Part shown: in pieces, positions 1,642 to 40,180 of the stretch | Layout of the letters: each line of letters begins with the position of its first letter | How positions within the stretch are numbered: position 1 is the first letter of the stretch | Assembly: GCA_963704145.1 (NCBI GenBank) | Contig: CAVPHB010000002.1 | Coordinates: 1,859-65,858 of the forward strand | Direction: 5' to 3' | DNA: 64,000 bases | Source: an uncultured Chloroflexia bacterium | Lineage (GTDB): Bacteria > Chloroflexota > Limnocylindria > Limnocylindrales > CSP1-4 | Notes under the pieces: generated by a model | What the model was told of the DNA's origin: nothing | The model's input: only the letters and a program-made list of their open reading frames with translations | Database searches by the model: none | Made by a program: the position numbers and the translations under genes

Positions 1642-2265
1642 ATGGGACGACGATTGCGCATCGATCTCGAAGACGGCTGGCACCACGTCATGAACCGTGG
1701 CACGACCACGGCGTGTTCGACGACGGACCGCATCGAGTGGGCAGCGACTCGCGACTGGTCGATCGATTCGACGTGCACGCACGCGTACTGTCCATGACAA
1801 TCATTCCACCTGTGTCACTGCCCGACGGCGGATGTCCGCCGCGATGCAGCGCTCGGCTCGATCTACACCCGCCCGAACGATCGGTCGGCGCGACGGGGCG
1901 TCCGAGGCGGTTCCACTCACGATGTGTCGACGACCCCACCTCTCTCGACGGTCGCTACGCAATGCGCTGGACCTCGCGGGGTCGAGCGGGCCAGCGCATA
2001 CCTCGGCCATCGGGCGTCCTCGGCCTCGCCCGCGCGGTGGCTAACCATCGCCTTCGTTCGGGCTGGACGACGTCCGGGATCGACGAGTTCGTCGAGCGGC
2101 CTCGCTGAAGCGGCTGTCGGATGCGGTGGACGAGCCTTGCCAGTTCCCGAGCCGCGACCCAGTCGACGACGCTGCGATCGGCCGTCTCGCGGATTCGTTC
2201 CCGTCTGGCGACCGACGCGGCGTTCGCCGCCGCAGTCACACGAACGGCGGAACTCGTCTTCCCGA
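1642..2265 (+). pseudogene. Decayed REP-associated tyrosine transposase (RAYT, IS200-like Y1 transposase)
   Basis: No intact ORF spans this interval. Frame pieces read MGRRLRIDLEDGWHHVMNRG, then VFDDGPHR, then FDVHAYCP*QSFHL (a degenerate HAYCLM.NHFHL HUH region). The interval is flanked by REP copies 2 and 3. Confidence 0.6.
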
Positions 2266-2268
2266 CGC

Positions 2269-2303
2269 GATTGCAGCAGGGGTCTGACCCCTGGTGCAAT
2301 CAG
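2269..2303. repeat. REP-type palindrome, copy 3 (GATTGCAGCAGGGGTCTGACCCCTGGTGCAATCAG)
   Basis: Near-perfect palindrome. It overlaps the tpx stop codon (TGA, reverse complement of 2300-2302). Confidence 0.85.
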
Positions 2304-2794
2304 AGGGCGGCGAGGGCGGCGTCGTAGTTGGGTTCCTGGGCGATCTCGGGGACGAGTTCGGTGTGCTTCACCGTGCCGTCGGGGCCGATCACCACCACTG
2401 CACGGGCGAGCACGCCCTGGAGCTTGCCGTCGGTCAGGTCGACGCCGTAGGTCGAACCGAAGTCGGACCGGAACGTCGAGCCGACCTTCACGTTCTCGAT
2501 GCCCTCGGCGCCGCAGAACCGACCCATTGCGAACGGCAGGTCGGCCGAGACGCACACGACCACCGTCTCGTCCATGCCGGCGGCGCGCTCGTTGAACTGC
2601 CGGACGCTCGTGGCACACGTCGGCGTGTCGATGCTCGGGAAGATGTTCAGGATGACGTTCTTGCCGGCGAACTCACCGGCGTCGAACTCGCCCAGGTCGG
2701 CGCCGACCAGCGAAAACGACGGCGCGGCGGCACCGACAGCGGGGAGATCTCCGGACGTGTGGACGGGGTTTCCCCCGAGGGTGACTTCAGCCAT
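2300..2794 (-). CDS. tpx: Thiol peroxidase
   Basis: 164 aa that align end to end with Tpx. Shared motifs include GNPVHTSG, NIFPSIDTPTCATSVRQFN, SADLPFAMGRFCGAEG and ARAVVVIG. Confidence 0.92.
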   Translation of the reverse strand: MAEVTLGGNPVHTSGDLPAVGAAAPSFSLVGADLGEFDAGEFAGKNVILNIFPSIDTPTCATSVRQFNERAAGMDETVVVCVSADLPFAMGRFCGAEGIENVKVGSTFRSDFGSTYGVDLTDGKLQGVLARAVVVIGPDGTVKHTELVPEIAQEPNYDAALAAL

Positions 2795-4199: not shown

Positions 4200-4242
4200 G
4201 TGTCTATTGTGCTTGCCTTGTCAAGGCTATTGCCATAGACAC
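4200..4242. promoter_or_regulatory. Nested inverted repeat in a divergent intergenic region (candidate operator)
   Basis: GTGTCTAT-N27-ATAGACAC encloses GCCTTGTCAAGGC. It lies between the divergent starts at 4142 (-) and 4340 (+). Confidence 0.3.
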
Positions 4243-4339
4243 GTCGCAAGAGCCGCTCCACGGTTCCGCAGCACAGCACGCGGACAATCGGCGGTGTCGG
4301 ATGCCCGCCGCGGCATCGAGCTGAAAGGGGAGCACAAGG

Positions 4340-4525
4340 ATGGTCAAAGACGCGACTGGACGAGAGGGCCTCTCAGCCGGAGCCATCGCCAAGGAGCTCG
4401 ACGCGACTCCCGGGGCGGTGAAGAAGGCGCTCGCGGCAATGAAGATCGAGGCCGACTTCGTCAAGGCCGGCTGCGCGTACTACTACGCCGAGCGCCTGCC
4501 AAAGGTGAAGCAGGCTCTCGCCTAG
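4340..4525 (+). CDS. Small hypothetical protein (61 aa, possibly HTH-like)
   Basis: ATG is preceded by AAGGGGAG. The codon bias looks coding, but no family was recognised. Confidence 0.45.
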   Translation: MVKDATGREGLSAGAIAKELDATPGAVKKALAAMKIEADFVKAGCAYYYAERLPKVKQALA

Positions 4526-4610
4526 CCGGAATCGACCCTCGCACCTTCGGAGGCTCATACTGTCAGCTGACGGTGCGCACTCGGTCGTACCCGATAGCGA
4601 GGATCTGGGT

Positions 4611-4868
4611 ATGGCCAAGCACTCGAAGTCAGAACGCGCCCGACGCGTCGTGGAGAACGAGAACGTCGCGCGCATAGAAGCGGCCTGGCAGGCGAGCGTC
4701 CCTGCCGCCACGGCCAAGGAGTTCGCCCGCGCGGTGGCCGAGGCGAAGGCGCGTGGTCCCCAAGAGCGGCGGCCGGACATGGCCCCCGGGACCGCCCCCC
4801 GACCGCCCCGACCGGGCCGCGAACCGAAGCCACCCAAGGAGCAGACCCGGTCGCGCCGGAGCTACTGA
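4611..4868 (+). CDS. Hypothetical protein (85 aa, Pro/Arg-rich C-terminus)
   Basis: ORF co-directional with its neighbours. No family recognised. Confidence 0.35.
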   Translation: MAKHSKSERARRVVENENVARIEAAWQASVPAATAKEFARAVAEAKARGPQERRPDMAPGTAPRPPRPGREPKPPKEQTRSRRSY

Positions 4869-4913
4869 TGCTCGTCCGACCACCCTCCGCCACCGTCGGC
4901 CGACGGTTCGCCG

Positions 4914-5234
4914 ATGCGTAAGCGCAAGGTCAACTACCCGCCGGCCAAGACGGCCACCAAGCGGGCCCCGGCGCCGGCCCCCGACCCGACCTTCGAGCGC
5001 CCCAACCTGGCCACGATCAACCTTCAAGCCGGCGCAGGCCGAGCGGGCTTTGCCGTCGGCGACCGCGTACGCATCGAGGCCGCGGGCATCTACGCCGGCC
5101 AGATCGCGGTCATCGAGCGACTCAGCAGCGGAGTCATCCCATCCGCGCTGGTGCGCACCGACAGTGGCGGCACCCGCCAGGTCCGAACGATCGATCTCGT
5201 TGCCGCGCCCGCGGAGCCACCGCCCTCAGGCTGA
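4914..5234 (+). CDS. Hypothetical protein (106 aa)
   Basis: ORF with a plausible small beta-rich domain (GDRVRIEAAGIYAGQIAVIERL). No family recognised. Confidence 0.4.
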   Translation: MRKRKVNYPPAKTATKRAPAPAPDPTFERPNLATINLQAGAGRAGFAVGDRVRIEAAGIYAGQIAVIERLSSGVIPSALVRTDSGGTRQVRTIDLVAAPAEPPPSG

Positions 5235-5723
5235 CCCGACGCGGGTGTCCTCTTTCGTTGGGACGGCGAGCAGTTTGAGGATGCGCGCCCTGATGGCCGA
5301 AGCGGTGGCCGAAGCGGTGGCCGGAGCGTCGAACTCGAGCAGCGTCCATTCGTCGGCCGGACCCGACTCGTCGTCGTCCGTGCGGACGATGCACACGCCG
5401 TCCCAGAAACCGTCGCGCCCGAAGCCCGGCTGGCCACCCTGGTCGAGCGCTCGAAACGGGAGCACCAGGCTGCCGTGGTCCATCTGCAGGAACTTGGCCG
5501 TTATGCGCATCAGCGGGTACGGCCCGCCGCGGTGCGCCGGGCTCCAACGGTAGGCAGCGCCGCGGCGCTCGACGTAGATGAGCGGCGTGAACGGGATCGC
5601 GAGGGCGATGCCCTTGGCCACGATGTCGATCGTCGTGGCGTGGTTGATGCCCTGGGCGAGGCTTACGCGCTCCGGATTCGGCCGCGCGCCAACGGCGCCG
5701 GCAGGATTGGATGACATCCCCAT
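5226..5723 (-). CDS. Hypothetical protein (165 aa)
   Basis: Non-repetitive ORF with an ordinary amino-acid composition. No family recognised. Confidence 0.45.
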   Translation of the reverse strand: MGMSSNPAGAVGARPNPERVSLAQGINHATTIDIVAKGIALAIPFTPLIYVERRGAAYRWSPAHRGGPYPLMRITAKFLQMDHGSLVLPFRALDQGGQPGFGRDGFWDGVCIVRTDDDESGPADEWTLLEFDAPATASATASAIRARILKLLAVPTKEDTRVGSA

Positions 5724-5889
5724 CTCCTATCGCACCTGGCAGTGGCACCGTGCCGACATGAGGGATGTCGGTGGTTGCCGGGCCGTCAACGAGCCAGGAC
5801 TCTCGGGCCGCTCTGGATAGGCGCCGCGCGTCTGTGCGCGGCAGCTCCCATTCTACGCTGCGGGTCGGTCGGGGAGACGCCCGCAGAAG

Positions 5890-7276: not shown

Positions 7277-8443
7277 CTACCGCCACAGGTCGCCGTATGG
7301 ATGGTCGCCGCGCAGCTGCTTGCCGGCCGCGAAGCGCCCCGGATCGAACATCGAGATGTCTGCACTGGCCGCGGCGCCGTCGAGGATCAGCTCGGCGACG
7401 GCCAGGCCCACCGCGGGCGCGATCTTGAAGCCCGTCCCGGAAAAGCCGGTCTGGAATACCAGCCCGTCCGGGCCGTAGCGGCCGATGATCGCGCGCTGGT
7501 CGGCGGTGATCCCGTCCGTGCCCCCGTGCGAGCCGCGGAACTCGGACTGCGCGAAGGCCGGCACGCGACGGCACAGCCGGTCGACCACGTGGTCGATGAA
7601 GGCTGGATCGCTGGGGCTGTCGTCGCCGGCCAGATCGTCGATCCGGTTGCCGTCCTCCAGGCCGACCAGCGCCAGCGTGTGCCCCTCGGGCCGGAAATAG
7701 AGCTCGTTGATGTCGTCGATGACCGTGGGCAGAGCGCCCTCCAGGGCGTCCGGGCGGGAGACGTAGCCCGTGTCGTGGTGCCAGGCGCGGATCTCCACCT
7801 TGACGCCGGCGGTCGCCGCCAGAGCAGCCGACCAGGCGCCCGCCGCAAGCACGACCACCGGTGCCGAGATCATGCCGCCCGCCATGCGCACACCGACCAC
7901 CCGCCCGTCATCGACCTCGATCGCCTGCACGACACTCGCCTGGCGCAGGACGGCGCCCTTCGCGCGGGCCGCGGCGAGCAGGGAGGTGCACGTGCTGGTC
8001 GGGTCGGCGTAGCCCGAGTCGGGCTCGTAGGCGGCGATGTTGAAGTCGTCGGTCACGAAGCCCGGGGCAAGGCGGGCGACGTCGGCGGCCGACACGACCG
8101 TGGTCGGGATGCCGATCCGCTGCTGGTCGGCCACGTTCGCACGCAGGTTGTCCTCTTGAGCCGGGGGCACGATGCGCACGAAACCGGTGCGCGTGAAGCC
8201 GGCGTCGCCGCCCACGCGCTGGGCCCAGTTGGTGAAGTAGTCGAACGACTTCCAGGCCAGCGCGCTCTCAGCGGCCAAGTCGTAGTGCATGCGCACCAGG
8301 CCGCTCGAGCGACCCGTCGCCGCGGAGCCGGCCACCGTCCGCTCGAGCACCATGACGCGAGCGCCGCGCTCGGCCAGGTGGAAAGCCGTGCTCGCGCCGT
8401 GCACCCCGGCACCGATCACGACGACATCGGCGATCTCGTTCAC
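7277..8443 (-). CDS. FAD-dependent oxidoreductase (DAO / sarcosine-oxidase-beta-like)
   Basis: Contains the ADVVVIGAGVHGASTAFHLAERGARVMVLE dinucleotide-binding fold. Full length, 388 aa, intact. Confidence 0.85.
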   Translation of the reverse strand: MNEIADVVVIGAGVHGASTAFHLAERGARVMVLERTVAGSAATGRSSGLVRMHYDLAAESALAWKSFDYFTNWAQRVGGDAGFTRTGFVRIVPPAQEDNLRANVADQQRIGIPTTVVSAADVARLAPGFVTDDFNIAAYEPDSGYADPTSTCTSLLAAARAKGAVLRQASVVQAIEVDDGRVVGVRMAGGMISAPVVVLAAGAWSAALAATAGVKVEIRAWHHDTGYVSRPDALEGALPTVIDDINELYFRPEGHTLALVGLEDGNRIDDLAGDDSPSDPAFIDHVVDRLCRRVPAFAQSEFRGSHGGTDGITADQRAIIGRYGPDGLVFQTGFSGTGFKIAPAVGLAVAELILDGAAASADISMFDPGRFAAGKQLRGDHPYGDLWR

Positions 8444-8554
8444 CCTCGCTCCTCCTGGCAGCGGTCCGCGTTGGATCAGACGTTAGCCGATCGAGTGTCG
8501 ACTGGGTCTGTGCTCGCACCGCCCGCTTCTCACCAAGGACGTCCATCCAGTCGG

Positions 8555-8805
8555 TGAGTCGGTCTTGTGGATCATCGACAGTCGGAGCTCCCTCTGCCCG
8601 GGCCGGCCGCGCGGGGTGCCGGCCGCGCGGGTGCCGGCCGCGGAGGTGCCGGCCGCGGGGGTGCCGGCCGCGCCGGGTGCCGGCCGCGCGGGGTGCCGGC
8701 CGCGGAGGTGCCGGCCGCGGGGGTGCCGGCCGCGCCGGGTGCCGGCCGCGCGGGGTGCCGGCCGCGCGGGGTGCCGTCCATGCCGCTGAGTCGGTTATGT
8801 GGATC
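8555..8805. repeat. GC-rich minisatellite (about 12 units of GGTGCCGGCCGCGNGG) bounded by two direct copies of the 20-nt core GTGAGTCGGTYWTGTGGATC
   Basis: The cores lie at 8555-8574 and 8786-8805. The 15-16-nt tandem units run from 8603 to 8778 with a higher-order ~63-nt periodicity. Confidence 0.85.
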
Positions 8806-9142
8806 AGTCTTCGAGCAGGCGGGCGAGCGTGGACGTCGCATCTGGGTTGAAGGGGTAAGCGCAGCTGTGCTGGTGCGGGCAGAAGCCGAAAGGAAAGTGC
8901 GGACCGATCGCCGTGGCGATGCGAATGACCCGTTCCGCGATCATGCCGGTGGCCAGTCCGCGCTCAAGGCGCGAGATGCCGCTCTGGCTGATGCCCGACA
9001 GCTCCGCCAAGCGCCGCTGCGACAGTCCAGCCTGGCGCCGACCATTCCGAAACCGGGCACCCACGATCACCATCTCGGGCACGGGCCAGACCAGGTATCG
9101 GCTGCCCTTCCAGGGGGTGCGCGCCCACGGGCCACCTTGCAT
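8804..9142 (-). CDS. XRE-family HTH transcriptional regulator
   Basis: GLSQRRLAELSGISQSGISRLERG helix-turn-helix. The alternative start at 9073 (MVIVGARFRNG) is more plausible. The stop codon lies inside a repeat core. Confidence 0.75.
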   Translation of the reverse strand: MQGGPWARTPWKGSRYLVWPVPEMVIVGARFRNGRRQAGLSQRRLAELSGISQSGISRLERGLATGMIAERVIRIATAIGPHFPFGFCPHQHSCAYPFNPDATSTLARLLED

Positions 9143-9203
9143 CGACCCATGAAAGCAGACGGCTCTTGTCGGTCGCTTACCCCCGACTCATCGCCCAATG
9201 CAT

Positions 9204-9640
9204 GATCCACGTAACCGACTCACTGCCGGGCAATGGTGCGCGAGCCCTACGGACAACGTATGGCGGCTCGGGACGACCTGATCCACGTAACCGACTCACT
9301 GCCGGGCAATGGTGCGCGAGCCCTACGGACAACGTATGGCGGCTCGGGACGACCTGATCTACGTAACCGACTCACTGACCGGGAGCTGGTGCCCGAGCCC
9401 TACGGACAAACGCATGGCGGCTCGGGACGACCTGATCCACGTAACCGACTCACTGACCGGGAGCTGGTGCGCGAGCCCTACGGACAAACGCATGGCGGCT
9501 CGGGACGGCCTGATCCACGTAACCGACTCACTGACCGGGAGCTGATACCCGAGCTCATTCGCAAGAACGGTCTTCGAACTCCGTGACGGGCAATGGTGCG
9601 CGAGCCCTACGGACAACGTATGGGGGCGCACCGACCCGAC
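9204..9640. repeat. Tandem array of five 76-78-bp units plus a partial sixth, each carrying the inverted core GATCCACGTAACCGACTCAC
   Basis: Core copies start at 9204, 9280, 9356, 9434 and 9512. There are two unit subtypes, (..GCAATGGTGCGCGAGCCCTACGGACAACGTATGGCGGCTCG..) and (..GAGCTGGTGCSCGAGCCCTACGGACAAACGCATGGCGGCTCG..). A partial unit lies at 9585-9630. Confidence 0.9.
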
Positions 9641-9641
9641 C

Positions 9642-11045
9642 CTAGTGGCGCGCGAGCCGCTCCTCGAGCGATCGGCCGCGGGGCGGCTGCCCAGACTGCT
9701 CGGACAGGCGGTCGACCCGGCCGAGGGCGGCCTGGGCGAAGCGCACGCCGAGCCAGCGCAACGGCTCGGGCTCCCACGCACGCGAGCGGTGGCCGACCAG
9801 CGGCAGCGCGGTGCGCGCGGTCTCTTGCCCGGTGATCAGCTCGGCCAGCGTTCGGCCACTGAGGTTGGCGGTCGAAACGCCGTGGCCGACGTAGCCGCGG
9901 GCGGTCGCCACCCCGGCAGCCCGGTCAAGGGCGATGGTTGGATGCCAGTCGCGCGGCATGCCCAGCGGACCGCCCCAGGCGTGGCTGAAGCGGACGCCGT
10001 GGCGGGCCAGCGCCGGGAACCACTCGCGCGCCAACGAGCGCAGCATCTCGTGCGTCGGTTCGTGCAGGTCGTACTCGTCGCGGATCGGCGACCCGAAGCG
10101 ATATGGCGCGCCACGGCCGCCGAACAACAGGCGGCCGTCGGACGTGCGCGACAGATAGACGACGGTGTAGCGCGGCGAGCCGATCAGTTCGTGCCCCTGC
10201 CAGCCGATCTCGGCCCACACAGCGTCGGGCAGCGGCTCGGTCAGCACGATCAGCGACCAGATCGGAATGAGCGAGCGATGCAGGCGGCGCAGGCGTGTCA
10301 GGTAGGCCTCGCCGGCGAGGACGATCGTGTCGGCCGTCACCGATCCACGGCGGGTTAGCAGCGCAGGCGGCGCATACGCCGACCGCGGCTGGAAGTCGGT
10401 GACCCCCGTCTGCTCGTGGATCGTGGCGCCCATGCGCTCGACCACCCGGGCCAGGCCGCGCGCCAGCTTGGCCGGCTGGATGGCCGCGGCGTCGGGCGTG
10501 AACAAGGCGGCCGTGGCTCGGCCGATGCGCAGGTGCGCGGAGAGTGCCGGTCCGTCGAGGAGCTGGTAGCGCGAGGCGAAGCCGAAGCGGTCCAGCTCGG
10601 CGAACTCGTCCTCGAGCTGGGGCGTCTCGTGCGGGCCGCGGGCGACAATCAGCTCGCCGCCGCGCCGCCAGTCGATATCGATCCCCTCCTCCACGGCCAC
10701 GCGGCCCACCTGGTCGACTGCCTCGAAGACTGCCTCGTACGTTGCCCGCGCGGCGTCGAAGCCGTGCAGCTTCTCCAGCCGGCCGAGCGAGATGTTGAGC
10801 CCCGGCGCGCACCACGCCCCGTTGCGTCCCGACGCGCCGAAGCCACAGATGTCGCGCTCCACGATCACGACGCGCAACGACGGCTGTGCGCGCAACAGGT
10901 AGTAGGCCGTCCACAGGCCGGTGTAGCCAGCGCCGAGGATGGCCACGTCGGCGTGGACGGATCCGTCCAAGGCCGGCCGCGAAGTCAGGTCATCGCCACA
11001 CGATTCGAGCCAGAACGAGACCAACGAGTAGTCGCGCGTGGTCAC
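9642..11045 (-). CDS. FAD-dependent oxidoreductase (PuuB/OrdL-like DAO family)
   Basis: ADVAILGAGYTGLWTAYYL...GFGASGRNGAWC and the C-terminus GYVGHGVSTANLSGRTLAELI. The start is set at GTG 11045. The longer ORF extension to 11549 is antisense to the divergent ALDH gene. Confidence 0.8.
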   Translation of the reverse strand: MTTRDYSLVSFWLESCGDDLTSRPALDGSVHADVAILGAGYTGLWTAYYLLRAQPSLRVVIVERDICGFGASGRNGAWCAPGLNISLGRLEKLHGFDAARATYEAVFEAVDQVGRVAVEEGIDIDWRRGGELIVARGPHETPQLEDEFAELDRFGFASRYQLLDGPALSAHLRIGRATAALFTPDAAAIQPAKLARGLARVVERMGATIHEQTGVTDFQPRSAYAPPALLTRRGSVTADTIVLAGEAYLTRLRRLHRSLIPIWSLIVLTEPLPDAVWAEIGWQGHELIGSPRYTVVYLSRTSDGRLLFGGRGAPYRFGSPIRDEYDLHEPTHEMLRSLAREWFPALARHGVRFSHAWGGPLGMPRDWHPTIALDRAAGVATARGYVGHGVSTANLSGRTLAELITGQETARTALPLVGHRSRAWEPEPLRWLGVRFAQAALGRVDRLSEQSGQPPRGRSLEERLARH

Positions 11046-11109
11046 GGTGATTACGATACGTGTACCCAGCACATCACAACCGAGCCTTGTTGCAGCAGAG
11101 GTCACCACC

Positions 11110-12563
11110 ATGACGCTTACGGCCACGCGTCGCAGCATGTTCATCAACGGAGAGTGGACGGACGCGGCGAACGGCGAAACGACATCGGTCATCAACCCCG
11201 CGACCGAGGAGGCCATCGGCGACGTGCCCAAGGGCGCCGAAGCCGATGCCGACCGCGCCGTGTCGGCCGCCCGGGCAGCGTTCGAGGACTGGTCGCAGAC
11301 CACCCCCGGCGAGCGGAGCCTGATGCTCTGGCGCTGGGCGCAGAAGATCGAGGACAGCAAGGCCGAGCTGTCGGCGCTCGAGTCGGCCAACGTCGGCAAG
11401 CCCAAGGGCGTGGCCGACTTCGACATCGACTTCAGCGTCGACAACCTGCGCTTCTTCGCCGGTGCCGCGCGCGTGCTCGAGGGCAAGGCGGCGGGCGAGT
11501 ACACCAAGGGCTGGACGAGCATGATCCGGCGTGAACCGGTCGGCGTCATCGGCCAGGTCGCGCCGTGGAACTACCCGTTGATGATGGCCATCTGGAAGCT
11601 CGGCCCGGCCCTCGCCGCGGGCAACACGGTGGTCCTCAAGCCGGCCTCGAGCGACGCCGCTGACCGCGCTGGCACTGGCCGAGCTGGCCGCCGACATCTT
11701 CCCCAAGGGCGTGCTCAACGTCATCACCGGGCCGGGCATGACGCTCGGCCAGCAGGCTGATGACGCACCCTGAAGTGGACATGGTCTCGCTGACCGGCGA
11801 CACGGCGACGGGCATCGAGATTGCCGCGGCGGCGGCACAGACGGTCAAGCGCGTCCACCTGGAGCTGGGCGGCAAGGCGCCGGTGGTGGTGTTCGACGAC
11901 GCCGATCTGGGCGCCGTGGTCGAGGCGGTCAAGCTGGCCGGCTTCTTCAACTCGGGCCAGGACTGCACCGCCGCGACGCGGATAATCGCGGGGAGTGGCG
12001 TCTACGAGAAGTTGCTCGCCGATTTAGTGCCGGCAATCCAGTCGCTCAAGGTGGGCAACCCGGCCGACGCCGAGGATCTCGACATGGGCCCGCTCGTGAG
12101 CGCCAGCCAGCGCGAGCGAGTGGCCGGCTACGTCGACCGGGCGCGCGGCTACGGTGCGAGCGTCGTGCTCGGCGGCGGCAGCGGTGCGCACGGCAACGGT
12201 CGCGGCTTCTTCTACGACCCGACCGTCGTGACCGACATCGGCCAGGACTCGGAGATCATCCAGCAGGAAGTGTTCGGCCCGGTCGTCACCGTGCAGCGCT
12301 TCAGCGACGACGAGGAGGCGATCCGCTGGGCCAACGGCGTCCCGTTCGGCCTCGCGTCGTCGGTCTGGACGCGCGACGTCAAGCGGGCACTCAACGCCGC
12401 GCGACGGTTGCGCTACGGGACGGTGTGGATCAACGACCACCTGACGATCGCGTCGGAGATGCCGCACGGTGGCTTCGGCCGCTCGGGCTACGGCAAGGAC
12501 ATGGGCATGTACTCGATCGAGGACTACACGATCGTCAAGCACGTCATGGCCAAGATCAGCTGA
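11110..12563 (+). pseudogene. patD: Gamma-aminobutyraldehyde dehydrogenase-like ALDH (PatD/YdcW-like), disrupted by two +1 frame changes
   Basis: It aligns along its whole length with the recalled E. coli YdcW/PatD (FFAGAARVLEGKAAGEY, APWNYPLMMA.WKL.PALAAGN.VVLKP, ELGGKAP, EMPHGG...SGYGKD). The frame moves 1 to 2 near 11653 and 2 to 3 near 11756. Confidence 0.85.
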
Positions 12564-12582
12564 CCGGCGAGCTCGTCCCCCG

Positions 12583-15498
12583 ATGACTGGCGGGCTGCCG
12601 ACCGGCGTCGTGACCTTTCTGTTCAGCGACGTCGAGGGCTCGACCAAGCTCCTGCACGAACTGGGCGACGGCTACGCCGCTGCGCTGCACGAGCATCGCC
12701 GCCTGCTCAGAGGGGCATTCGCGGCGCACGACGGCGTCGAGGTCGACACCCAGGGCGATGCCTTCTTCGTGGCCTTCGGCCGCGCGTCGGACGGCGTCGC
12801 CGCAGCGATCGACGCGCAACGCGCCCTGGCGGCCGGCCCGATCAAGGTCCGCATCGGCCTGCACACGGGCGAGCCGCGCCTGACTCCGGAAGGCTACGTC
12901 GGGCTCGACGTCCACAAGGGCGCGCGCATCGCCGCCGTGGGCCATGGCGGCCAGGTTCTGGTGTCGCAGGCGACGCGCGCGCTGGTCGAAGCCAGCGTGC
13001 GCGATCTCGGCCCGCATCGCCTGAAGGACCTGACCGCGCCCGAGCGCATCTTCCAGCTCGAGATAGAGGGCCTGCCGTCCGACTTCCCGCTGCTCAAGAC
13101 GCTCGAGGCGGGCATGCGCAACCTGCCCGCCGCGCGCACCTCGTTCGTGGGCCGCGAGACGGAGCTGGGTGAGATAGACAGGCTGCTGGGCGAGCCCGAC
13201 TGTCGGCTGCTGACGCTCGTCGGGCCGGGCGGCACGGGCAAGTCCAGGCTGGCCCTCGAGGCTGCCGGACGACGGATCGAGCACTACCCGCACGGCGTCC
13301 ACTACATACCCCTCGCCGGAGTGCCCGAGCCGGGCCTCCTCGCACCGGCCGTGGCCGAGGGACTGCAGTTCCAGGTCGACTTCGCCCACAGCGCCATACC
13401 TGCTCGCGATCAACTGGTCGATTACCTGCGCGATCGCTCGGCGCTGCTCGTGCTTGACAACTTCGAGCACCTGCTCGACGCACGAGACGTGGTCACGCAG
13501 ATCATCGACGAGGCGCCGCTGGTCGAGCTGCTGACCACATCGCGCGAGCGGCTGCAGGTGCAGAGCGAGTGGGTCATCGATGTGGCCGGGCTCGAGTTCG
13601 TTCCCGGCAACGGGCACGCTTCCGGTAACGGGCACGCTTCCGGTAACGGGCACGGCAGCGGGCACGGCAGCGGGCGCGGCAGCGGCAACGGTCACGCTGC
13701 CGACAGCCCGGCGACCCGGCTGTTCGTCGATCGCGCTCGGCACGTCGATCCGGCGTATGCCCTGACCGAAGCGGAGCGTCCGCACGTCGAGCGCATCTGC
13801 CGGATCGTCCACGGCATGCCGCTCGGCATCGAGCTTGCCGCGGCCTGGGTGTCGATGCTGTCGGCGGCAGAGATCGCCGACGAGATCGAGCGCAACCTCA
13901 GCTTCCTGCAGACCACCATGGCCGACGTGCCCGAGCGTCACCGCAGCCTGCGGGCGGCGTTTGACCAGTCGTGGCGGCTGCTCGCCGATGATGGGCGGCG
14001 CGTGTTCGCCCGGCTGTCCATCTTCCGCGGTGGCTTCACCCGCGAAGCAGCAGCAGCCGTGGCCGAGGCGGGCATCGTCCAGCTGCACGATCTCGTCGCC
14101 AAGTCGCTCGTGCGCCGGACCGAGCTGGGTCGCTTCGAGCTGCACGAGTTGCTGCGCCAGTACGCCGCCGAACGGCTGGCGGAGACAGCCGACGGGCAAG
14201 CCGCCACTGCCGAGCGACATGGCCGTTACTACGTCGGCATGCTCGGCGAGCGAAGAAGCGCGCTTGCGGGCCCGGGAATGGCCGAGGCGCGCGATGAGTT
14301 GCGCCGCGATCTCGACAACCTCCGCCTGGCGGCCGAATGGGTGGTCGGTCATGGATCCGATCAGGAGTCGTTTGCCCTGACGGCCGCACTCGGTCTGTTC
14401 TTCTTCGTCCACGGGCCATTCGAGGGCGCCCAGACGTTCGAGCGCCTGGCAGAGGCGGTGGGCGTGACGGGAGGCGTCGCAGTCGACCCGGCTTCGGTCT
14501 CCGATGCTGCGTTGTCTGTTCTCACCCACTGGGCGGTCGTGCGCACCGACCTGGGCTACGACGAGGAGACGGAGCAGCTGCTGCTCGCCCTCGTGCCCGT
14601 GCTGCGCGAGCGCGACCTGCGCGCCGACCTCGGCTACGCACTCTATGGATCTGGCGTCGTGGCTTGTTACGAGGACGTCTACGCCGATTCTGCGCGCTTC
14701 CTCGAGGAGGCAATTCCCCTGCTCAGGGCGGCGGGCGACCTGTTCTATGTGGGGGCCGCGCTGTCGTGGCTGGGCTTCGTCCGCTTGTTGCAGAACGATC
14801 TCGAGGCCGCGGGCAGGAACTTCAGGGAGTGTGATGCGGTCGCGCGCGAGTGTGGTCAGCCGCTCACACGCGCCTATGCGACGAGCAAGCTCGGCATCCT
14901 GGCCGATGCCGAGGGCCGTTACGCCGAGGCGATGCGCCTGCACATGGAGGCCAACGCCCTGTTCGAGAGCGTGGGCGACGTGGGCGGCACGGGCTACACG
15001 CTCAGCCGGGCCAGCCTGAGCGCGTTCGGCGTGGGCGACTTCGGCGAGGCGCTGCGCTTTGGGCGAGCCGGGTACGAGGCCTTCCGGCAGGTCAACCACC
15101 GCTGGGGCATGATCGGCGGGCTGTGCCGGATCGGTTTCGCAGAATTCGCTCTCGGCAGCAGTGACGAGGCACGCGATCACCTGCGCGACGCGCTCAGCCG
15201 TGCCCGCGAGTCCAAGGCGATCTCGCTCGAGCTGCTCGCCCTGAGCGGGATCGGGGCGGTGCTCGCCAAGGGTGATGATCCGAGCCGAGCCGCGCTGCTG
15301 CTCACGTTTGCGCTCGGCCACGAACAGCTGCCGGCCGCGTACGGTTTCGCCGCGCGGCCGGCGCTGGACGCGCTCGAGGCGTCGCTGACAGCCGACGAAC
15401 TGGCCGCCGTGCGCGAGGCAGCAGCCACGGCCGACCTCGACGAACTGGTGGCCAACGTGCTTGGAGAGCACACCCTGATTGGAGGTGGCAGCCCATGA
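12583..15498 (+). CDS. Class III adenylate/guanylate cyclase domain - AAA/NB-ARC ATPase - TPR (STAND-type) protein
   Basis: Cyclase signature VVTFLFSDVEGSTKL...VDTQGDAFFVAF...IGLHTGE and a Walker A motif LVGPGGTGKSRLA. The C-terminal region is helical and repeat-rich. 971 aa, intact. Confidence 0.85.
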   Translation: MTGGLPTGVVTFLFSDVEGSTKLLHELGDGYAAALHEHRRLLRGAFAAHDGVEVDTQGDAFFVAFGRASDGVAAAIDAQRALAAGPIKVRIGLHTGEPRLTPEGYVGLDVHKGARIAAVGHGGQVLVSQATRALVEASVRDLGPHRLKDLTAPERIFQLEIEGLPSDFPLLKTLEAGMRNLPAARTSFVGRETELGEIDRLLGEPDCRLLTLVGPGGTGKSRLALEAAGRRIEHYPHGVHYIPLAGVPEPGLLAPAVAEGLQFQVDFAHSAIPARDQLVDYLRDRSALLVLDNFEHLLDARDVVTQIIDEAPLVELLTTSRERLQVQSEWVIDVAGLEFVPGNGHASGNGHASGNGHGSGHGSGRGSGNGHAADSPATRLFVDRARHVDPAYALTEAERPHVERICRIVHGMPLGIELAAAWVSMLSAAEIADEIERNLSFLQTTMADVPERHRSLRAAFDQSWRLLADDGRRVFARLSIFRGGFTREAAAAVAEAGIVQLHDLVAKSLVRRTELGRFELHELLRQYAAERLAETADGQAATAERHGRYYVGMLGERRSALAGPGMAEARDELRRDLDNLRLAAEWVVGHGSDQESFALTAALGLFFFVHGPFEGAQTFERLAEAVGVTGGVAVDPASVSDAALSVLTHWAVVRTDLGYDEETEQLLLALVPVLRERDLRADLGYALYGSGVVACYEDVYADSARFLEEAIPLLRAAGDLFYVGAALSWLGFVRLLQNDLEAAGRNFRECDAVARECGQPLTRAYATSKLGILADAEGRYAEAMRLHMEANALFESVGDVGGTGYTLSRASLSAFGVGDFGEALRFGRAGYEAFRQVNHRWGMIGGLCRIGFAEFALGSSDEARDHLRDALSRARESKAISLELLALSGIGAVLAKGDDPSRAALLLTFALGHEQLPAAYGFAARPALDALEASLTADELAAVREAAATADLDELVANVLGEHTLIGGGSP

Positions 15499-16754
15499 AG
15501 ACGCTACGCGTACTGCTGGTCGGCGCCGGCACGGTCGGCGAGGCGATCGCGCAGGTCAGTGCCGGGCGCGACTGGCTGGAGCACATGGTCGTGGCCGACT
15601 ACGACGCCGTCCGGGCGGAGCAGGTGGCTGCCGGCGCGACGCAGACGGCCAAGGCTGCTGGTCGGTCGGACCAGTTCGAGTCGGCCCGGATCGACGCGTC
15701 CTCAGCGCAAGCGGTGACCGACATGGCCCGCCAGCATCGGGCCGATCTGGTCATGAACGCGGTTGACCCGCAGTTCGTGATGCCCGTCTTTGACGGTGCC
15801 CTGGCCGCCGACGCGAACTACATGGACATGGCCGTGAGCCTGTCCAAGCCGCATCCCGATGTGCCGCACCAGAAGCCCGGGTTGAAGCTGGGCGACGAGC
15901 AGTTCGAGCGGGCGGCCGATTGGCAGCGGGCGGGCCGGCTGGCGCTGGTCGGCATGGGCATGGACCCCGGTCTGACCGACGTCTTCGCCGCGTATGCCGC
16001 CAAGCACCTGTTCGACGAGGTCGACGAGGTCCACATCCGCGACGGCGGCGACCTGGCCATCCAGGGCTTCGCCTTTGCGCCGGTCTTCTCGATCTGGACC
16101 ACGATCGAGGAGTGCCTCAATCCGCCGATCATCTGGGACAACGGGGCGTGGCACACCACCGAGCCGTTCAGCGCGCCCGAGATGTTCCCCTTCCCCGACG
16201 GCGTGGGCGAGGTCGAATGCGTCAACGTCGAGCACGAGGAGGTGCTGCTCGTGCCGCGCGGGCTGCCCGCCGTGCGCCGGGTGACGTTCAAGTACGCCCT
16301 GGGCAGCGACTTCATCGACAAGCTGAAGACCATCCACGCGCTGGGCATGGACCGCACCGACCGCGTGTCGGTCAAAGGCGTCGAGGTGGCGCCGCGCGAC
16401 GTGCTGGCGGCAATCACGCCCGACCCGGCCAAGGTGGGCGACCGCATGATCGGCCGGGCCATCGTGGGCACGTGGGTGATCGGCAAGCGCGACGGAGCGC
16501 CGCGCGAGGTCTACCTGTACCAGACGACAGACGCGGCCGATGTCTGGCGTCGACTCGGGCTGGGCGCGGTGGCCTGGCAGACCGGCTTCAATCCGGTCAT
16601 TGCCATGGAGCTGCTGGCCAGCGGGGAGTGGCAGGGCAGCGGCGTGCTGGGGCCGGAAGCCTTCGACCCCGACCCTTACCTGGGACTGCTCGACGCGTAC
16701 GGCATCCACCACGCGATGGCGGAGATGGAGCCCGGCCGGCACCGACCGACCTGA
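15495..16754 (+). CDS. Saccharopine dehydrogenase family NAD(P)-binding protein
   Basis: N-terminal Rossmann fold VLLVGAGTVGEAIA, 419 aa, intact. Its ATG overlaps the upstream stop codon (ATGA). Confidence 0.75.
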   Translation: MKTLRVLLVGAGTVGEAIAQVSAGRDWLEHMVVADYDAVRAEQVAAGATQTAKAAGRSDQFESARIDASSAQAVTDMARQHRADLVMNAVDPQFVMPVFDGALAADANYMDMAVSLSKPHPDVPHQKPGLKLGDEQFERAADWQRAGRLALVGMGMDPGLTDVFAAYAAKHLFDEVDEVHIRDGGDLAIQGFAFAPVFSIWTTIEECLNPPIIWDNGAWHTTEPFSAPEMFPFPDGVGEVECVNVEHEEVLLVPRGLPAVRRVTFKYALGSDFIDKLKTIHALGMDRTDRVSVKGVEVAPRDVLAAITPDPAKVGDRMIGRAIVGTWVIGKRDGAPREVYLYQTTDAADVWRRLGLGAVAWQTGFNPVIAMELLASGEWQGSGVLGPEAFDPDPYLGLLDAYGIHHAMAEMEPGRHRPT

Positions 16755-16945
16755 CCGGCGGCACCCGCCGACCTGACCAGGGGGATCCGCCGACCCGACC
16801 TGAGCAGGGGGGATCCGCCGACCCGACCTGGGGACGTCCTACCTGCCGGTGAGTCGGTTACGTGGACCAGCCGGCGGTGCCGGGCCCGCGATGGGGCGCG
16901 AAGTGATCTGCCTAACTGACTCACTGACCGTCAGGCAGGCGCGCC
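16755..16945. repeat. Composite repeat: ~26-bp direct repeats (GGGGATCCGCCGACCCGACCTG, about 2.5 units) plus a hairpin-type copy of the 20-nt core family
   Basis: A direct core lies at 16849-16868 (GTGAGTCGGTTACGTGGACC) and an inverted variant at 16905-16924 (GATCTGCCTAACTGACTCAC). The outer arms CCTGCC/GGCAGG extend the pairing. Confidence 0.8.
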
Positions 16946-16967
16946 AAGCCGGGGCTGGCTGAAGGAT

Positions 16968-19900: not shown

Positions 19901-20489
19901 CCTGCAGACGGGCGGCAGTATTGACCAGGTCACCCGCGACCATGCCCTGGTTCGTGGCGCCGAGGGTGACTGCTGCCTCGCCGGTCAGAACGCCCGCCCG
20001 CGCCTGGATGCCCGGGCCAAGGCCGCCGACGCCGGCCACCAGGTCGAGCGCCGCACGAACGGCGCGCTCGGCGTCGTCTTCCTGCGCCGTGGGCGCGCCC
20101 CAGACGGCCATCACCGCGTCACCTATGAACTTCTCGACCGTGCCGCCGTACAGCTCGATGACGTTGCGCGCCATATCGAAGTAGCGCGTCAGCGTCTCGC
20201 GCACGTCCTCTGCGTCGCGCTCCTCGGCGAACGGCGTGAACCCGACCAGGTCGGCGAACAGGATGCTGACCAGCCGCCGCTCGGCGCCTGGCTCCTGGGC
20301 CGCAGCGACCACCGGCACGGCGCCCGCCGCCAGCGGGGTCGCGCATTCGGAGCAGAACTTCGCACCGGGCAGGTTGGCGAAGCCGCAGCTCGGACAGGTC
20401 GCCGCCAGCGGACTGGCGCACTCCATGCAGAACTTGGCCCCGCCGAGGTTCTCGGTCCCACACTGCCCGCAGATCACGCGCAGGAGCAT
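16968..20489 (-). CDS. Double zinc-ribbon - class III nucleotide cyclase - AAA ATPase - TPR (STAND-type) protein
   Basis: CGQCGTENLGGAKFCMEC...CPSCGFANLPGAKFCSEC, then the cyclase signature ILFADLVGFTPF...KFIGDAVMAVWG, then a Walker A motif VIGPGGIGKSRLA. 1173 aa, intact. Confidence 0.85.
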   Translation of the reverse strand: MLLRVICGQCGTENLGGAKFCMECASPLAATCPSCGFANLPGAKFCSECATPLAAGAVPVVAAAQEPGAERRLVSILFADLVGFTPFAEERDAEDVRETLTRYFDMARNVIELYGGTVEKFIGDAVMAVWGAPTAQEDDAERAVRAALDLVAGVGGLGPGIQARAGVLTGEAAVTLGATNQGMVAGDLVNTAARLQGVAEPGTVLVGEATQRASSEAIVFEKLGDQALKGKSTPVAAWRALRVVAQRGGRGRSETLEAPFVGRDEEMRLLKDLFHATNREERPRLVSVIGPGGIGKSRLAWEFLKYIDGLSDTVWWHDGRSPAYGDGITFWALGEMIRGRAGLLESDDEQTTREKLATSVREHVPSDAERAPIERALLVLLGFESGVDPQQLFGAWRTFFERLADELPVVMVFEDLHFADPGLLDFIDHVLEWSRTSPITIITLARPELLERRPNWGAGKRSFTSIYLEPLADAQMRELLAGLVPGLPERAAAAIVARADGIPLYAVETVRMLLAQDRLTLEDGVYRPTGDLDDIAVPETLTALIAARLDGLDAADHALIADAAVLGQSFTPGALEVLAGVKPDALEARLAGLARRELLRREADPRSPELGQYVFVQALIREVAYNTLSKKDRKARHLAAARYLEGQATGEAAGALAGHYLAAYRLAGEGPEADALAAQARVALRGAGDRAAALGSHEQAVTFFEEALEVTTDTAERAELHGRALKSAVEGLSVDVIVRHAEEALAARRELGERTAIADAVATHARAVSNSLGDPNRALGLLLPAWDEFADLEATPVGVKLMGQIASAYGKLDRPAEEIVWLDRLIPIAERLDLLDELVGALLGRGVSLAGTDRPREGLLLLRGAHAMALANGFRDRERGGRTLLTFWEQWAEPAAGLELAREGLEIARQIGSSVYGFLMVGNGVVCAIRVGEWDWAAALLEDWIPADAAAGQFSEFFVDRAILNALRGGDPSADIARGTAMHVGITDPQYESYDMWARAWAAFSAGRFGEARTEGLRAAETTSYFHPLSVPLAARASLWAGDAAGAREAMDVLGRTMYRGHALALDKAAVRAGILALEGRPAEALVLYRETLGGWRALKLAWDEALTVVDMVAFLGPDEPEVRSAAEAARLTLARLGAQPYLERLEAALAGSAGRPNTPTAAAKPRTVPAPR

Positions 20490-22018: not shown

Positions 22019-22113
22019 GTGAGTCGGTTATGTGGATCTGTTGGGCGGTCGACGGTACGGCGCCCGGTGAGGCCGGCCGCGCAGCAAGGTGGTGATCTGC
22101 CTAACCGACTCAA
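22019..22113. repeat. Hairpin (MITE-like) copy of the 20-nt core family
   Basis: GTGAGTCGGTTATGTGGATC at 22019-22038 faces GATCTGCCTAACCGACTCAA at 22094-22113. It lies between two convergent aminotransferase genes. Confidence 0.8.
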
Positions 22114-23535: not shown

Positions 23536-23537
23536 GG

Positions 23538-25251: not shown

Positions 25252-25294
25252 CCCGGCCCTCGGTCAGCTGGCTGCCGCCACGGCCGTAGCCGGC

Positions 25295-32149: not shown

Positions 32150-32398
32150 ACGAGTCGGCTAGGTGGATCAAGGCGGCGGCTGGTCCGCCGCGGCTGGTCC
32201 GCGGCGGCTGGCTTGCGCGAGTCGGTTATGTGGATCAAGGCGGCGGCTGGTCCGCCGCGGCTGGCCCGCCGCGGCTGGCTTGCGCGAGTCGGTTATGTGG
32301 ATCAAGGCGGCGGCTGGTCCGCCGCGGCTGGTCCGCCGCGGCTGGCTTGCGGCGGACCAAGTGCGGGTCCGGGCCAGTGATCCACGAAACCGACTCAA
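32150..32398. repeat. Three direct 67-bp units, each starting with the core (G)CGAGTCGGYTAKGTGGATC, closed by one inverted core
   Basis: Direct cores lie at 32150-32169, 32217-32236 and 32284-32303. The inverted core GATCCACGAAACCGACTCAA lies at 32379-32398. The unit bodies are GC-rich GCGGCTGG repeats. Confidence 0.9.

Positions 32399-38944: not shown

Positions 38945-40180
<1,236 letters not shown>

Follow-up and report, generated by a model that had tools for sequence, protein, structure and literature searches.

Why should the gene of a small regulator lie between inverted copies of one short repeat, and what might these copies be for? The question is raised by a locus in a 64-kb stretch of the genome (the window; all window counts given here refer to this one stretch), which a preliminary description had read as an XRE helix-turn-helix gene between two arrays of the same repeat family. 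We find a conserved cassette of a single gene, of which this locus is one copy, with a protein that we call XRE-CPH and a site that is a 20-bp pseudo-palindrome, TGAGTC-N8-GAyTCA (window version TGAGTCGGTTACGTGGATCA). With a probability of about one half, and judging from sequence comparison, we propose that the protein and this site, its cognate candidate binding site, form a co-evolving pair that resembles the REPIN/RAYT systems and is built on a helix-turn-helix protein.

The cassette and its repeat in the window

A search of the 64-kb window with the core TGATCCACGTAACCGACTCA, allowing up to three mismatches, gave 14 matches, compared with 0 in 100 dinucleotide shuffles, and a profile search added a 15th copy at 16904. 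The TGAGT ends point outward in all copies in the window, and all of them lie within 8.5-32.4 kb, with none in the remaining 40 kb. Two cores in minus orientation stand on one side of the XRE gene and five in plus orientation on the other (Table 1), so the inverted arrangement described earlier is confirmed. The description of two arrays of the same family holds for the right side, where five cores recur in the 76-bp array, except that its sixth unit is degenerate and has no core; on the left there are instead two cores bracketing a minisatellite of a sequence unrelated to them. The start codon of the neighbouring gene DAO1 (8443) is 112 nt from the distal downstream core, which thus lies upstream of DAO1. 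The density of tandem arrays within 150 nt of cores is 11 times that found elsewhere, and this excess of unrelated minisatellites suggests that the copies may be made by replication slippage or template switching at putatively bound sites. Among 185,579 species genomes, an exact search for the core returned one match, inside a gene of an Acidobacteriota MAG, which we judged to be due to chance; the core variant of the window is therefore species-specific.

Table 1. Coordinates of the cassette and of the gene-less core sites in the window
Feature	Position	Strand	Details
Distal downstream core	8555-8574	-	TGATCCACAAGACCGACTCA on the minus strand, 3 mismatches
GC-rich 15/16-bp minisatellite	8602-8776		unit GTGCCGGCCGCGSGG, ~11 copies, between both downstream cores
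Proximal downstream core	8787-8806	-	first three bases TGA (8806-8804) are the XRE stop codon
XRE-CPH gene	8804-9142	-	112 aa; sole gene in the cassette; single copy in the window
XRE-CPH parts			N-terminal WPVPEM motif; helix-turn-helix ~22-80; C-terminal FPFGFCPHQHSCAYP motif
Promoter-proximal region	9143-9202	-	same layout in ~20 homologue loci
TTTCAT hexamer	9149-9154		6 nt before ATG
G[GA]TAAG-type boxes	9176-9181, 9165-9170		GGTAAG and GACAAG, respectively
Upstream array	9203-9544	+	five cores (9203, 9279, 9355, 9433, 9511); 76-78-bp units
Degenerate sixth unit	9563-9638	+	spacer-like, without core; repeat family at 66% identity
22-28-bp tandem repeat	16732-16830		adjoins doublet 16850-16923
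Gene-less inverted doublet	16850-16923		arms 16850-16869 and 16904-16923
Gene-less inverted doublet	22020-22112		arms at 22020 and 22093; between two convergent class-III aminotransferase genes
Gene-less core site	32151-32397		three direct cores (32151, 32218, 32285; 67-bp units) facing an inverted core at 32378

For the XRE-CPH gene we favour the 112-aa reading, since homologues have kept its N-terminal WPVPEM motif. Pfam assigned residues 28-77 to HTH_31 (37.3 bits, cut-off 27) and HTH_3 (35.3 bits, cut-off 23), and across Pfam, NCBIfam and PADLOC the matches were to helix-turn-helix profiles alone, with no Y1_Tnp domain. The AF2 model shows a confident XRE fold over residues 21-80 (pLDDT 85-98) and a tail of low confidence (residues 81-112, pLDDT 52-59). 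The best Foldseek matches in the PDB were C.AhdI, C.BclI, ClgR and SinR, all dimeric operator binders, with an rmsd of 1.0-1.4 Å over 53-60 columns. The recognition helix, SQSxISRLERG, is almost invariant across the family and has one variable residue; that so constant a helix stands beside cores with a variable centre counts against our main reading. The Cys/His tail had been called unusual, and it proved to be the signature of the family: the motif FP[FL]GxCPHxHxC is invariant, with C88, P89, H90 and C94 the same in all members and H92 present in at least 90% of sequences, and we infer that it is a candidate metal- or redox-binding motif. Members of the family were named only from Chloroflexota/Limnocylindria MAGs.

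Several familiar identities for this protein were tried and rejected. As an antitoxin of a type II toxin-antitoxin system (HigA/HipB-like) it would stand alone, given that no cassette at any locus contains another ORF, and the NCBIfam antitoxin profile scored 33.5 bits against a cut-off of 71.65. A PuuR-type regulator was rejected on the lack of a cupin domain and on the PuuR profile NF007408, which reached 30.3 bits, over the helix-turn-helix region alone and far below its equivalog cut-off of 211. A restriction-modification (R-M) controller protein did not fit either, given that the immediate neighbours are FAD oxidoreductases, that there is no C-box and that the helix is unlike that of C.AhdI. 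As for an origin from phages, plasmids or viruses, tblastn against phage and plasmid collections gave no match, and the matches on viral contigs were generic Cro-like proteins without the CPH motif.

The promoter-proximal region offers a second set of candidate sites. Its direct G[GA]TAAG boxes precede the -10-like hexamer TTTCAT by exactly 10 nt, and this hexamer is so near the ATG that it suggests a leaderless transcript. The boxes are as invariant as the recognition helix and, on this pattern, would make an equally plausible candidate operator, competing with the core as the site of XRE-CPH. Scans of 8300-9800 for sigma-70-like promoters and intrinsic terminators found none, and Rfam gave no match at the locus, its sole match in the window being a SAM riboswitch at 5724-5823.

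Apart from the cassette, the 64-kb window holds three gene-less core sites, all within 25 kb of the XRE gene. The first doublet in Table 1 lies between the convergent 3' ends of a saccharopine-dehydrogenase-like gene and a cyclase/AAA_16 gene, and the site with three direct cores separates an ABC ATPase gene from a divergently oriented GFO/IDH/MocA oxidoreductase gene. Two of the four core sites in the window thus fall between convergent 3' ends, unlike operator positions, a further observation that counts against the main reading. The doublets of one genome have a common arm asymmetry and a common spacer sequence: they were probably copied as whole units. Where their arms mismatch, the differences are concentrated centrally and are uncompensated. 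We rejected an origin of the doublets by internal deletion of the cassette: alignments of their spacers with the cassette interior were no better than shuffles (a fraction of 0.07-0.99 of the shuffles reached the same score or a higher one), and a 9-nt match, GCAAGGTGG, was at chance level. No target-site duplication was visible on either side of the cassette or of the three doublets, where we saw only an inverted-repeat extension, (C)CG-TGAGTC.

Homologous loci and the divergence of protein and core

In other assemblies, too, homologues of XRE-CPH have a diverged version of the 20-bp core on their two sides, as inverted copies or as arrays, and the flanking repeats are mostly tandem arrays. 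We compared the 19 homologue loci in which both flanks were readable with 501 controls of the same geometry, and the flanking inverted repeat was at or above the 99th percentile of the controls in 14/19 and above every control in 11/19. The preliminary description had proposed a look at homologues elsewhere, and they turned out to be the opposite of never associated with the repeat. Exceptions include one locus with direct rather than inverted copies (L027), one with an array upstream only (L028) and one with a weak flanking signal (L008). The same flanked architecture was found around two distant long-form members (L022 and L023), which are among the 14 loci and lie in unrelated gene neighbourhoods. 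The overlap of the stop codon with the first downstream core recurs as well, being present in the window and in L006, L015, L017, L025 and L026.

Across lineages the core keeps a length of about 20 bp and its ends (TGAGTC ... GAyTCA/GATCA), and its centre is lineage-specific; palindromes with perfect ends occur in L026 (TGAGTC-N8-GACTCA) and L009 (TGAGTAG-N6-CTACTCA). Fixed ends with a changing centre would be the pattern expected of the operator of a dimeric helix-turn-helix protein. Core classes follow the protein clades, over 48-78% identity, and so does the variable residue of the recognition helix (SQS-E/L/V/A/G); the covariation of this residue with the core class represents few independent events, because about four clades carry it.

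In the window, the XRE-CPH gene is surrounded by an amine/polyamine-catabolism cluster, with DAO-type oxidases, an aldehyde dehydrogenase, class-III aminotransferases, a saccharopine dehydrogenase and an ABC importer with a TOBE-domain ATPase. Across genomes, this gene neighbourhood is shuffled, and at least seven of its intergenic sites have been found to carry the cassette. For example, the site between the aminotransferase genes (AT1|AT2) holds the cassette in L010, L013, L018 and L025 and the second doublet of Table 1 in the window, with both neighbour genes unchanged; because these genes are kept around the doublet, a simple inversion between cores was rejected as the cause of the changed position at this site. 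Upstream of DAO1, where cores are found in three genomes (the window, L002 and L008), there is a cassette, an inverted cassette or a doublet, depending on the genome, and the orientation of the cassette relative to DAO1/DAO2 is opposite in the window and L008. Both orientations would be expected of an invertible DNA switch (inverton), but no invertase gene was seen, and no empty orthologous site was found in the loci compared. The earlier proposal of a composite mobile or regulatory cassette, with the XRE protein as a candidate binder of the core, is supported by the flanks of the homologues and by the co-divergence of cores and clades, and its mobile half has comparative support because position and orientation change between genomes and doublets seem to be copied as units.

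What the cores may do

We hypothesise that the 20-bp site is the recognition sequence of XRE-CPH itself, with a dimer reading both conserved ends. Sites on either side of the gene could then allow a cooperative or looped complex around a presumably leaderless promoter, resulting in autoregulation, and through the Cys/His tail a metal or redox signal could act on dimerisation or on the binding of DNA. Whole inverted doublets copied into nearby intergenic regions would provide extra binding loci, and hairpins if transcribed, and protein and site would then co-evolve as a pair. This would make a testable protein-DNA pair, namely a 20-bp site whose ends are fixed and whose centre differs by lineage, and a protein whose recognition helix has one variable residue, and it would offer a possible cause of local genome shuffling and minisatellite formation. 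If XRE-CPH were merely an autoregulator, it would still represent a new and sharply defined XRE subfamily with a candidate metal/redox motif and an unusual two-sided operator architecture. A bolder version, which we consider doubtful, is that there is a second class of inverted doublets, which propagate themselves without HUH transposases and have XRE-CPH proteins as dedicated partners. Either this helix-turn-helix-Cys/His protein of 110 aa would itself help its 20-bp sites to be copied or recombined, or its tight binding there would lead to template switching at replication forks. If true, this would account for the doublets in the vicinity, for the tandem arrays and for the minisatellites next to cores, and it would be a new long-term protein-repeat symbiosis in Chloroflexota, comparable to REPIN/RAYT.

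The cores could alternatively be the ends of an IS/MITE-type transposable or recombining unit that is moved by an enzyme encoded elsewhere, with XRE-CPH as a resident regulator or cargo that binds the G[GA]TAAG boxes and not the cores. In its geometry the cassette recalls terminal inverted repeats that are joined, left and right, by several subterminal copies, and the end of the ORF falls inside the right-hand repeat, which is common among insertion sequences. The boxes are as invariant as the recognition helix. Doublets apparently copied whole would be compatible with such a unit, and so would cassettes that differ between genomes in their site and in their orientation to DAO1/DAO2. We nevertheless regard it as unlikely, since no transposase or recombinase was found in any cassette, in the called genes of the homologue loci or among the window genes scanned (part of the window), no target-site duplication is visible at the ends of doublets or cassette, and the doublet spacers have no significant similarity to the cassette interior. 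Moreover, the gene is single copy and confined to one gene neighbourhood, no member was found on phage, plasmid or viral contigs, and the co-divergence of core classes with a protein over 48-78% identity is unexpected for passive cargo.

Action at the level of RNA or single-stranded DNA is quite improbable in our view, although the doublets do fold into long hairpins, far below shuffled controls (z -3.2 to -5.4). On this account the cores would act like REP elements, with arm hairpins that end or stabilise transcripts and insulate the XRE transcript, rather than as protein sites, and the two doublets between convergent 3' ends, as well as some arm mismatches that would be G-U pairs on the plus strand, would fit. 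Around the gene, however, a distance of 400-1000 nt separates the arms, folding of the 76-bp array unit is not significant (z +0.65), and we saw no terminator-like T-runs and no Rfam match at the locus; the central, uncompensated arm mismatches, together with fixed ends, a free centre and a palindrome inside each 20-mer, make the pattern of a protein site and not of a helix. Finally, XRE-CPH could be a PuuR-analogous local regulator of the amine/polyamine-catabolism cluster, the cores being the operators of its regulon and the arrays and doublets incidental. The gene content of the neighbourhood (DAO-type oxidases, aminotransferases, importer) invites this account, as do the cores upstream of DAO1 in three genomes, those in the divergent promoter region at 32151-32397 and the confinement of all window cores to one part of it. 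It is very unlikely all the same: L022 and L023 are flanked alike in unrelated neighbourhoods, copies are also found past the stop codon of XRE-CPH itself and between convergent genes, PuuR is matched in the helix-turn-helix alone (30 bits against 211, no cupin), and ordinary operators seldom turn over with their regulator this fast or multiply as tandem units.

Relation to known protein-repeat systems

Arrays of binding sites beside the gene of the binding protein are known from plasmid iterons and from centromeres such as sopC/SopB and parC/ParR. The likeness lies in tandem units of 40-90 bp, each made of one short motif and a spacer, beside the gene of the presumed binder; the XRE-CPH locus differs in being chromosomal, with no partition ATPase or replication initiator nearby, in arrays that flank the gene in inverted orientation, and in the gene-less doublets elsewhere. 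Regulators can also bind the ends of insertion sequences, for example InsA of IS1. With IS and MITE elements the cassette shares terminal inverted repeats, an ORF that ends in the right-hand repeat with the promoter beside the left-hand one, gene-less derivatives in the same genome, and a small DNA-binding protein that could bind both ends. In contrast to them, it is single copy, without a transposase domain or target-site duplication, its ends are tandemly multiplied with lineage-specific spacers, and it co-diverges vertically across a protein family.

Dimeric XRE binders, such as C-proteins, SinR, ClgR and the phage 434 and P22 repressors, have the same fold as XRE-CPH and autoregulate through palindromic or pseudo-palindromic sites with conserved ends near their own gene. 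Unlike them, XRE-CPH has a CPHxHxC tail, no adjacent R-M, toxin or phage genes, and sites on both sides of its gene that are arrayed and dispersed as doublets. The controller C-proteins of R-M systems bind an upstream C-box, GACT-N3-AGTC-N4-GACT-N3-AGTC (PMC2175313). The likeness of the core to the C-box stays an analogy only, because the recognition helices differ (DRSYVGGVERG in C.AhdI, SQSxISRLERG in XRE-CPH).

The closest parallel to the proposed pair is that of REP/REPIN sequences and RAYT genes, together called 'REPtrons' (Nunvar 2010; Bertels and Rainey 2011, PMC3116915, PMC3337134). In both cases a chromosomal gene present once has a short, lineage-specific repeat in inverted copies on its two sides, the repeat recurs elsewhere as inverted doublets without the gene, and gene and repeat co-diverge. 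REPIN doublets evolve as units, and the doublets of the XRE-CPH core seem to do so too. The protein, on the other hand, is an XRE helix-turn-helix with a Cys/His tail and no evident catalytic activity, whereas RAYT is an HUH Y1 transposase of the IS200/IS605 type. The repeats differ as well: XRE-CPH cores start with TGAGTC or TGAGTA and lack the GTAG/CGTC head of REP, they are 20-bp pseudo-palindromes where REP is a hairpin-forming sequence of 20-40 nt, and in the 64-kb window the copies lie within about 25 kb of the gene. REPINs number tens to hundreds per whole genome. To our knowledge, a gene locked between inverted copies of its own repeat has so far been tied to RAYT transposases alone. 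Here a comparable genomic logic is centred on a simple helix-turn-helix protein that carries a metal-type tail, family-wide in an uncultured bacterial class, and partnerships between proteins and repeats may arise by more than one route.

The XRE locus and its core repeats in the window

Two minus-strand FAD-dependent (DAO-type) oxidoreductase genes are separated in the window by a 1.2-kb gap (8444-9641), in which we found a single ORF (8804-9142, minus strand, 112 aa), so the XRE gene is indeed the only gene there, as the preliminary description had it. This gene, present in one copy in the window, belongs to the XRE family according to Pfam, both scores exceeding the curated thresholds (HTH_31, 37.3 bits, cut-off 27; HTH_3, 35.3 bits, cut-off 23), and we call its product, with its conserved Cys/His tail, XRE-CPH. 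The 20-nt core, TGATCCACGTAACCGACTCA, has 14 matches in the window at up to three mismatches and none in any of 100 dinucleotide-preserving shuffles, and a profile made from these matches retrieved a fifteenth copy. The cores upstream of the gene are inverted relative to those downstream, in agreement with what had been proposed; the accompanying claim of arrays of one repeat family on both sides stood for the right side, which carries five cores in 76-78-bp units, and failed for the left, where two cores enclose a foreign minisatellite. The TGA stop of the gene forms the initial three bases of the adjacent downstream core. The remaining eight copies fall at three gene-less sites, including two inverted pairs, or doublets, and at all of these sites, as at the XRE locus, the GATCA ends point inward and the TGAGTC ends outward. 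When both strands were searched with a loose cross-lineage pattern, TGAGT[CA]-N9-10-[GC]AT[CT]N, the window matched at these core sites only; with 0-8.5 kb and 32.4-64 kb free of copies, the core family is clustered in this window within about 25 kb of the XRE gene.

The window has a G+C content of 69.6%, and the only Rfam match in it was a SAM riboswitch (RF00162, 54.5 bits; gathering score 44.4). Two large regulators, paralogues of each other, are also encoded in the window; both have adenylate/guanylate cyclase, AAA_16 and TPR domains, and the second has an N-terminal zinc ribbon as well. Several genes appear broken (11757-11760; 21808-21810; 22265-24037; 25000-29000): the aldehyde dehydrogenase gene is split across two frames, AT1, one of two convergent class-III aminotransferase genes (AT1 and AT2), has an in-frame stop, a single ORF joins an aminotransferase to an ABC permease domain, and overlapping ORF fragments span 25-29 kb. 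Either the assembly contains indels here, as happens in long-read MAGs, or the genes are true pseudogenes.

Positions of cores, associated elements and other features in the window and at homologue loci
Locus	Feature	Position	Strand	Remark
Window	3' cores (n=2)	8555-8574, 8787-8806		downstream of XRE gene
Window	GC minisatellite	8602-8776		15/16-bp units, ~11 copies; unrelated to core; bracketed by both 3' cores
Window	5' cores (n=5)	9203, 9279, 9355, 9433, 9511		upstream of XRE gene
Window	degenerate sixth unit, core-less	9563-9638		next to five-core upstream array
Window	G[GA]TAAG-type boxes	9176-9181, 9165-9170	minus	within 9143-9202 promoter region
Window	promoter hexamer	9149-9154	minus	
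Window	doublet	16850/16904		between convergent 3' ends
Window	doublet	22020/22093		between AT1 and AT2
Window	three cores facing an inverted core	32151, 32218, 32285 facing 32378		divergent intergenic region
Window	unrelated minisatellites beside or between cores	16732-16830, 32176-32345		
L010	unrelated minisatellite beside or between cores	2240-2296		
L011	unrelated minisatellite beside or between cores	2426-2515		
L025	unrelated minisatellite beside or between cores	10482-10820		
Window	short tandem repeats with no nearby core	30775-30846, 39026-39141, 13604-13685		in or near genes; 12 bp x 6, 12 bp x 9.7, 18/12 bp
Window	paralogous regulator	12469-15495	plus	
Window	paralogous regulator	16971-20489	minus	
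Window	SAM riboswitch	5724-5823	minus	
L002	PIN/RHH toxin-antitoxin pairs	16371-17017, 19284-19917		cassette neighbourhood; one adjoins the doublet
L002	doublet	17521-17596		
L003	RVT_1 gene	4228-5601		
L004	RVT_1 gene	10614-11642		342 aa, retron-sized; starts ~160 nt past last downstream core

Flanking cores at homologue loci and their co-divergence with the protein

DNA around homologues from other assemblies was taken from a contig index (L002-L007, L022-L028) and from a metagenome scan (L008-L021). In locus after locus a diverged 20-bp core in inverted copies brackets the gene, often as arrays of 2-5 units that repeat every 50-90 bp and have lineage-specific spacers, and most strikingly in L025, where TGAGTCGCTTTGCTGACTAG occurs five times upstream and three times downstream. 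As controls for the top-scoring inverted match between the two 350-nt flanks, we used 501 placements drawn at random from these loci with the geometry unchanged. The match beat every control in 11 of 19 loci and reached at least the 99th percentile in 14, so that the comparison with homologues which the preliminary description had proposed supports its interpretation of gene and flanking cores as a composite mobile or regulatory cassette. The arms are visibly related yet diverged in four further loci (L002, L003, L013, L015), and the match is weak in L008. The long-form members (L022, L023) keep the flanked architecture with different sequences; the exceptions are L027, with direct rather than inverted copies, and L028, with an array upstream only. 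The first of the downstream cores contains the stop codon both in the window and in L006, L015, L017, L025 and L026. Near the cassette we also noted reverse-transcriptase (RVT_1) genes in two loci, probably a coincidence, two toxin-antitoxin pairs in L002, homologues of the cyclase/AAA_16 regulators adjoining it in L002 and L007, and an extra partial copy of such a regulator (residues 5-359) beside the DAO-type gene DAO1 in L008.

Across lineages the core keeps a constant length of 20 bp, with an outer end of TGAGTC or TGAGTA, an inner end of GATCA, CATCA, GACTA or ACTCA, and about eight central bases that vary by lineage; the ends are perfectly palindromic in L026 (TGAGTC-N8-GACTCA) and L009 (TGAGTAG-N6-CTACTCA), and within the window the variable positions are likewise central, CCGACTCA being nearly invariant. 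Constant ends separated by roughly one and a half turns of the helix, around a free centre, make up a pattern of conservation that would be expected for an operator of a dimeric HTH protein and not for an RNA helix. In a neighbour-joining tree of the proteins, four short-form clades have one core class each, and they also differ at x, the one residue that varies in the recognition helix (SQS-x-ISRxERG): x is E with TGAGTCC...GCCATCA, L with TGAGTA...GTGATCA, V with TGAGTCG...GATyS, and A or G with TGAGTCG...GATCA. This match of helix residue and core class is compatible with direct recognition, though it comprises few independent events.

A word-indexed search gave 28 close relatives, all from metagenomes or MAGs, and when 1.84 billion cluster representatives were searched exhaustively with a profile, about 100 of the best 150 matches were single-domain relatives, including long forms of 160-240 aa. 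With G28, R35, Q42, Q53, R58, E60, P84, G86, C88, P89, H90 and C94 invariant, the family is defined as an HTH followed by FP[FL]GxCPHxHxC, in which at least 90% of sequences also have H92. All named members are Chloroflexota, several of them Candidatus Limnocylindria or Limnocylindrales, and judging by these named homologues the window probably derives from that group too; no member was found on phage, plasmid or viral contigs, and no curated family in Pfam, NCBIfam or PADLOC extends past the HTH. The AF2 model predicts a confident XRE fold for residues 21-80 and a tail with pLDDT of 52-59, and the closest solved structures (C.BclI, C.AhdI, ClgR, SinR) are dimeric operator binders. The profile also matches very long proteins (P0029, P0031, P0044 and others; up to 2059 aa, one of 5640 aa) with 8-14 tandem XRE-like HTH stretches.

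Promoter boxes, copying of doublets and rival readings

In most cassettes examined, at about 20 homologue loci, the stretch from the closest upstream core to the start codon contains direct G[GA]TAAG-type boxes, two or three in number and repeating every 11-12 bp; they are absent from L023. A hexamer (TTGAAT/TTTGAT/TTTCAT) lies exactly 10 nt downstream of the proximal box and ends 6-8 nt before the start codon, an arrangement suggestive of a leaderless transcript whose promoter is overlapped by an operator. Because these boxes vary as little as the recognition helix does, they compete seriously with the cores as candidate binding site of XRE-CPH.

Mapping of the window genes onto all loci outlined one shuffled neighbourhood (aldehyde dehydrogenase, DAO1, a second DAO-type gene DAO2, cyclase/AAA_16, AT1, AT2, a GFO/IDH oxidoreductase and an ABC ATPase), within which the cassette occupies seven or more different intergenic positions. 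Between the convergent AT1 and AT2 there is a cassette in L010, L013, L018 and L025 and a doublet in the window, where both neighbours are unchanged, ruling out a single inversion; the site upstream of DAO1 holds a cassette in the window, one of opposite orientation in L008 and a doublet in L002. The window doublets at 16850 and 22020 have a common right arm, TGATCTGCCTAAC, unlike their left arms, and partly similar spacers, while both L002 doublets have the spacer TCGCnGCAATCGACTCA; this arm asymmetry and the spacers common within a genome indicate that doublets were copied as whole units. Derivation of their spacers from the cassette interior was not detectable. Tandem arrays with a period of at least 10 number 1.64 per kb within 150 nt of cores and 0.15 per kb elsewhere in these loci, an 11-fold excess that may partly be due to intergenic location. 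Of the 24 arrays near cores, 15 are minisatellites that contain no core and are unrelated in sequence.

The HTH-CPH gene, its promoter with direct boxes, the inverted 20-bp pseudo-palindromes on both sides and the gene-less doublets nearby form a conserved, co-diverging unit. From sequence, we hypothesise that an XRE-CPH dimer binds the 20-bp sites, those on both flanks giving a cooperative or looped complex that would control the gene's own leaderless promoter; that the CPHxHxC tail, whose four potential ligands at i, i+2, i+4 and i+6 would share one face of an extended strand, modulates dimerisation or binding through metal binding or redox sensing; that doublets provide additional binding loci; and that slippage of replication or template switching at bound sites may produce array growth, adjacent minisatellites and local copying. 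To this reading as a whole we give a probability of roughly 0.5.

A rival reading, which we regard as doubtful, is that an unlinked enzyme moves a unit whose ends are the cores, and that XRE-CPH binds only the promoter boxes. The cores could also act at the RNA level as REP-like hairpins, and the doublets do fold with z of -3.2 to -5.4, but the array unit has no such fold (z +0.65), and we consider this unlikely. That the whole is an ordinary local regulon of an amine-catabolism cluster seems very unlikely, as the long forms keep the flanked architecture in unrelated neighbourhoods.

Comparison with known systems

By its defining features an IS or MITE was rejected, with no transposase or recombinase in any cassette and no target-site duplication seen, as were a restriction-modification controller (R-M genes and the C-box described in PMC2175313 are absent, and the recognition helices differ), the antitoxin of a toxin-antitoxin system (no toxin gene) and PuuR (no cupin domain). 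The literature we searched contained no account of an XRE-type gene with a dispersed repeat family consistently at its flanks, nor anything about repeats of this kind in Limnocylindria. In its logic the cassette comes nearest to REP/REPIN-RAYT (PMC3116915, PMC3337134), where a gene likewise lies between inverted copies of a dispersed repeat and doublets evolve as units, as those here appear to; XRE-CPH, however, is not an HUH Y1 transposase, and the core is without the GTAG/CGTC head. By this analogy, the cassette can be regarded as a REPtron-like architecture outside that family.
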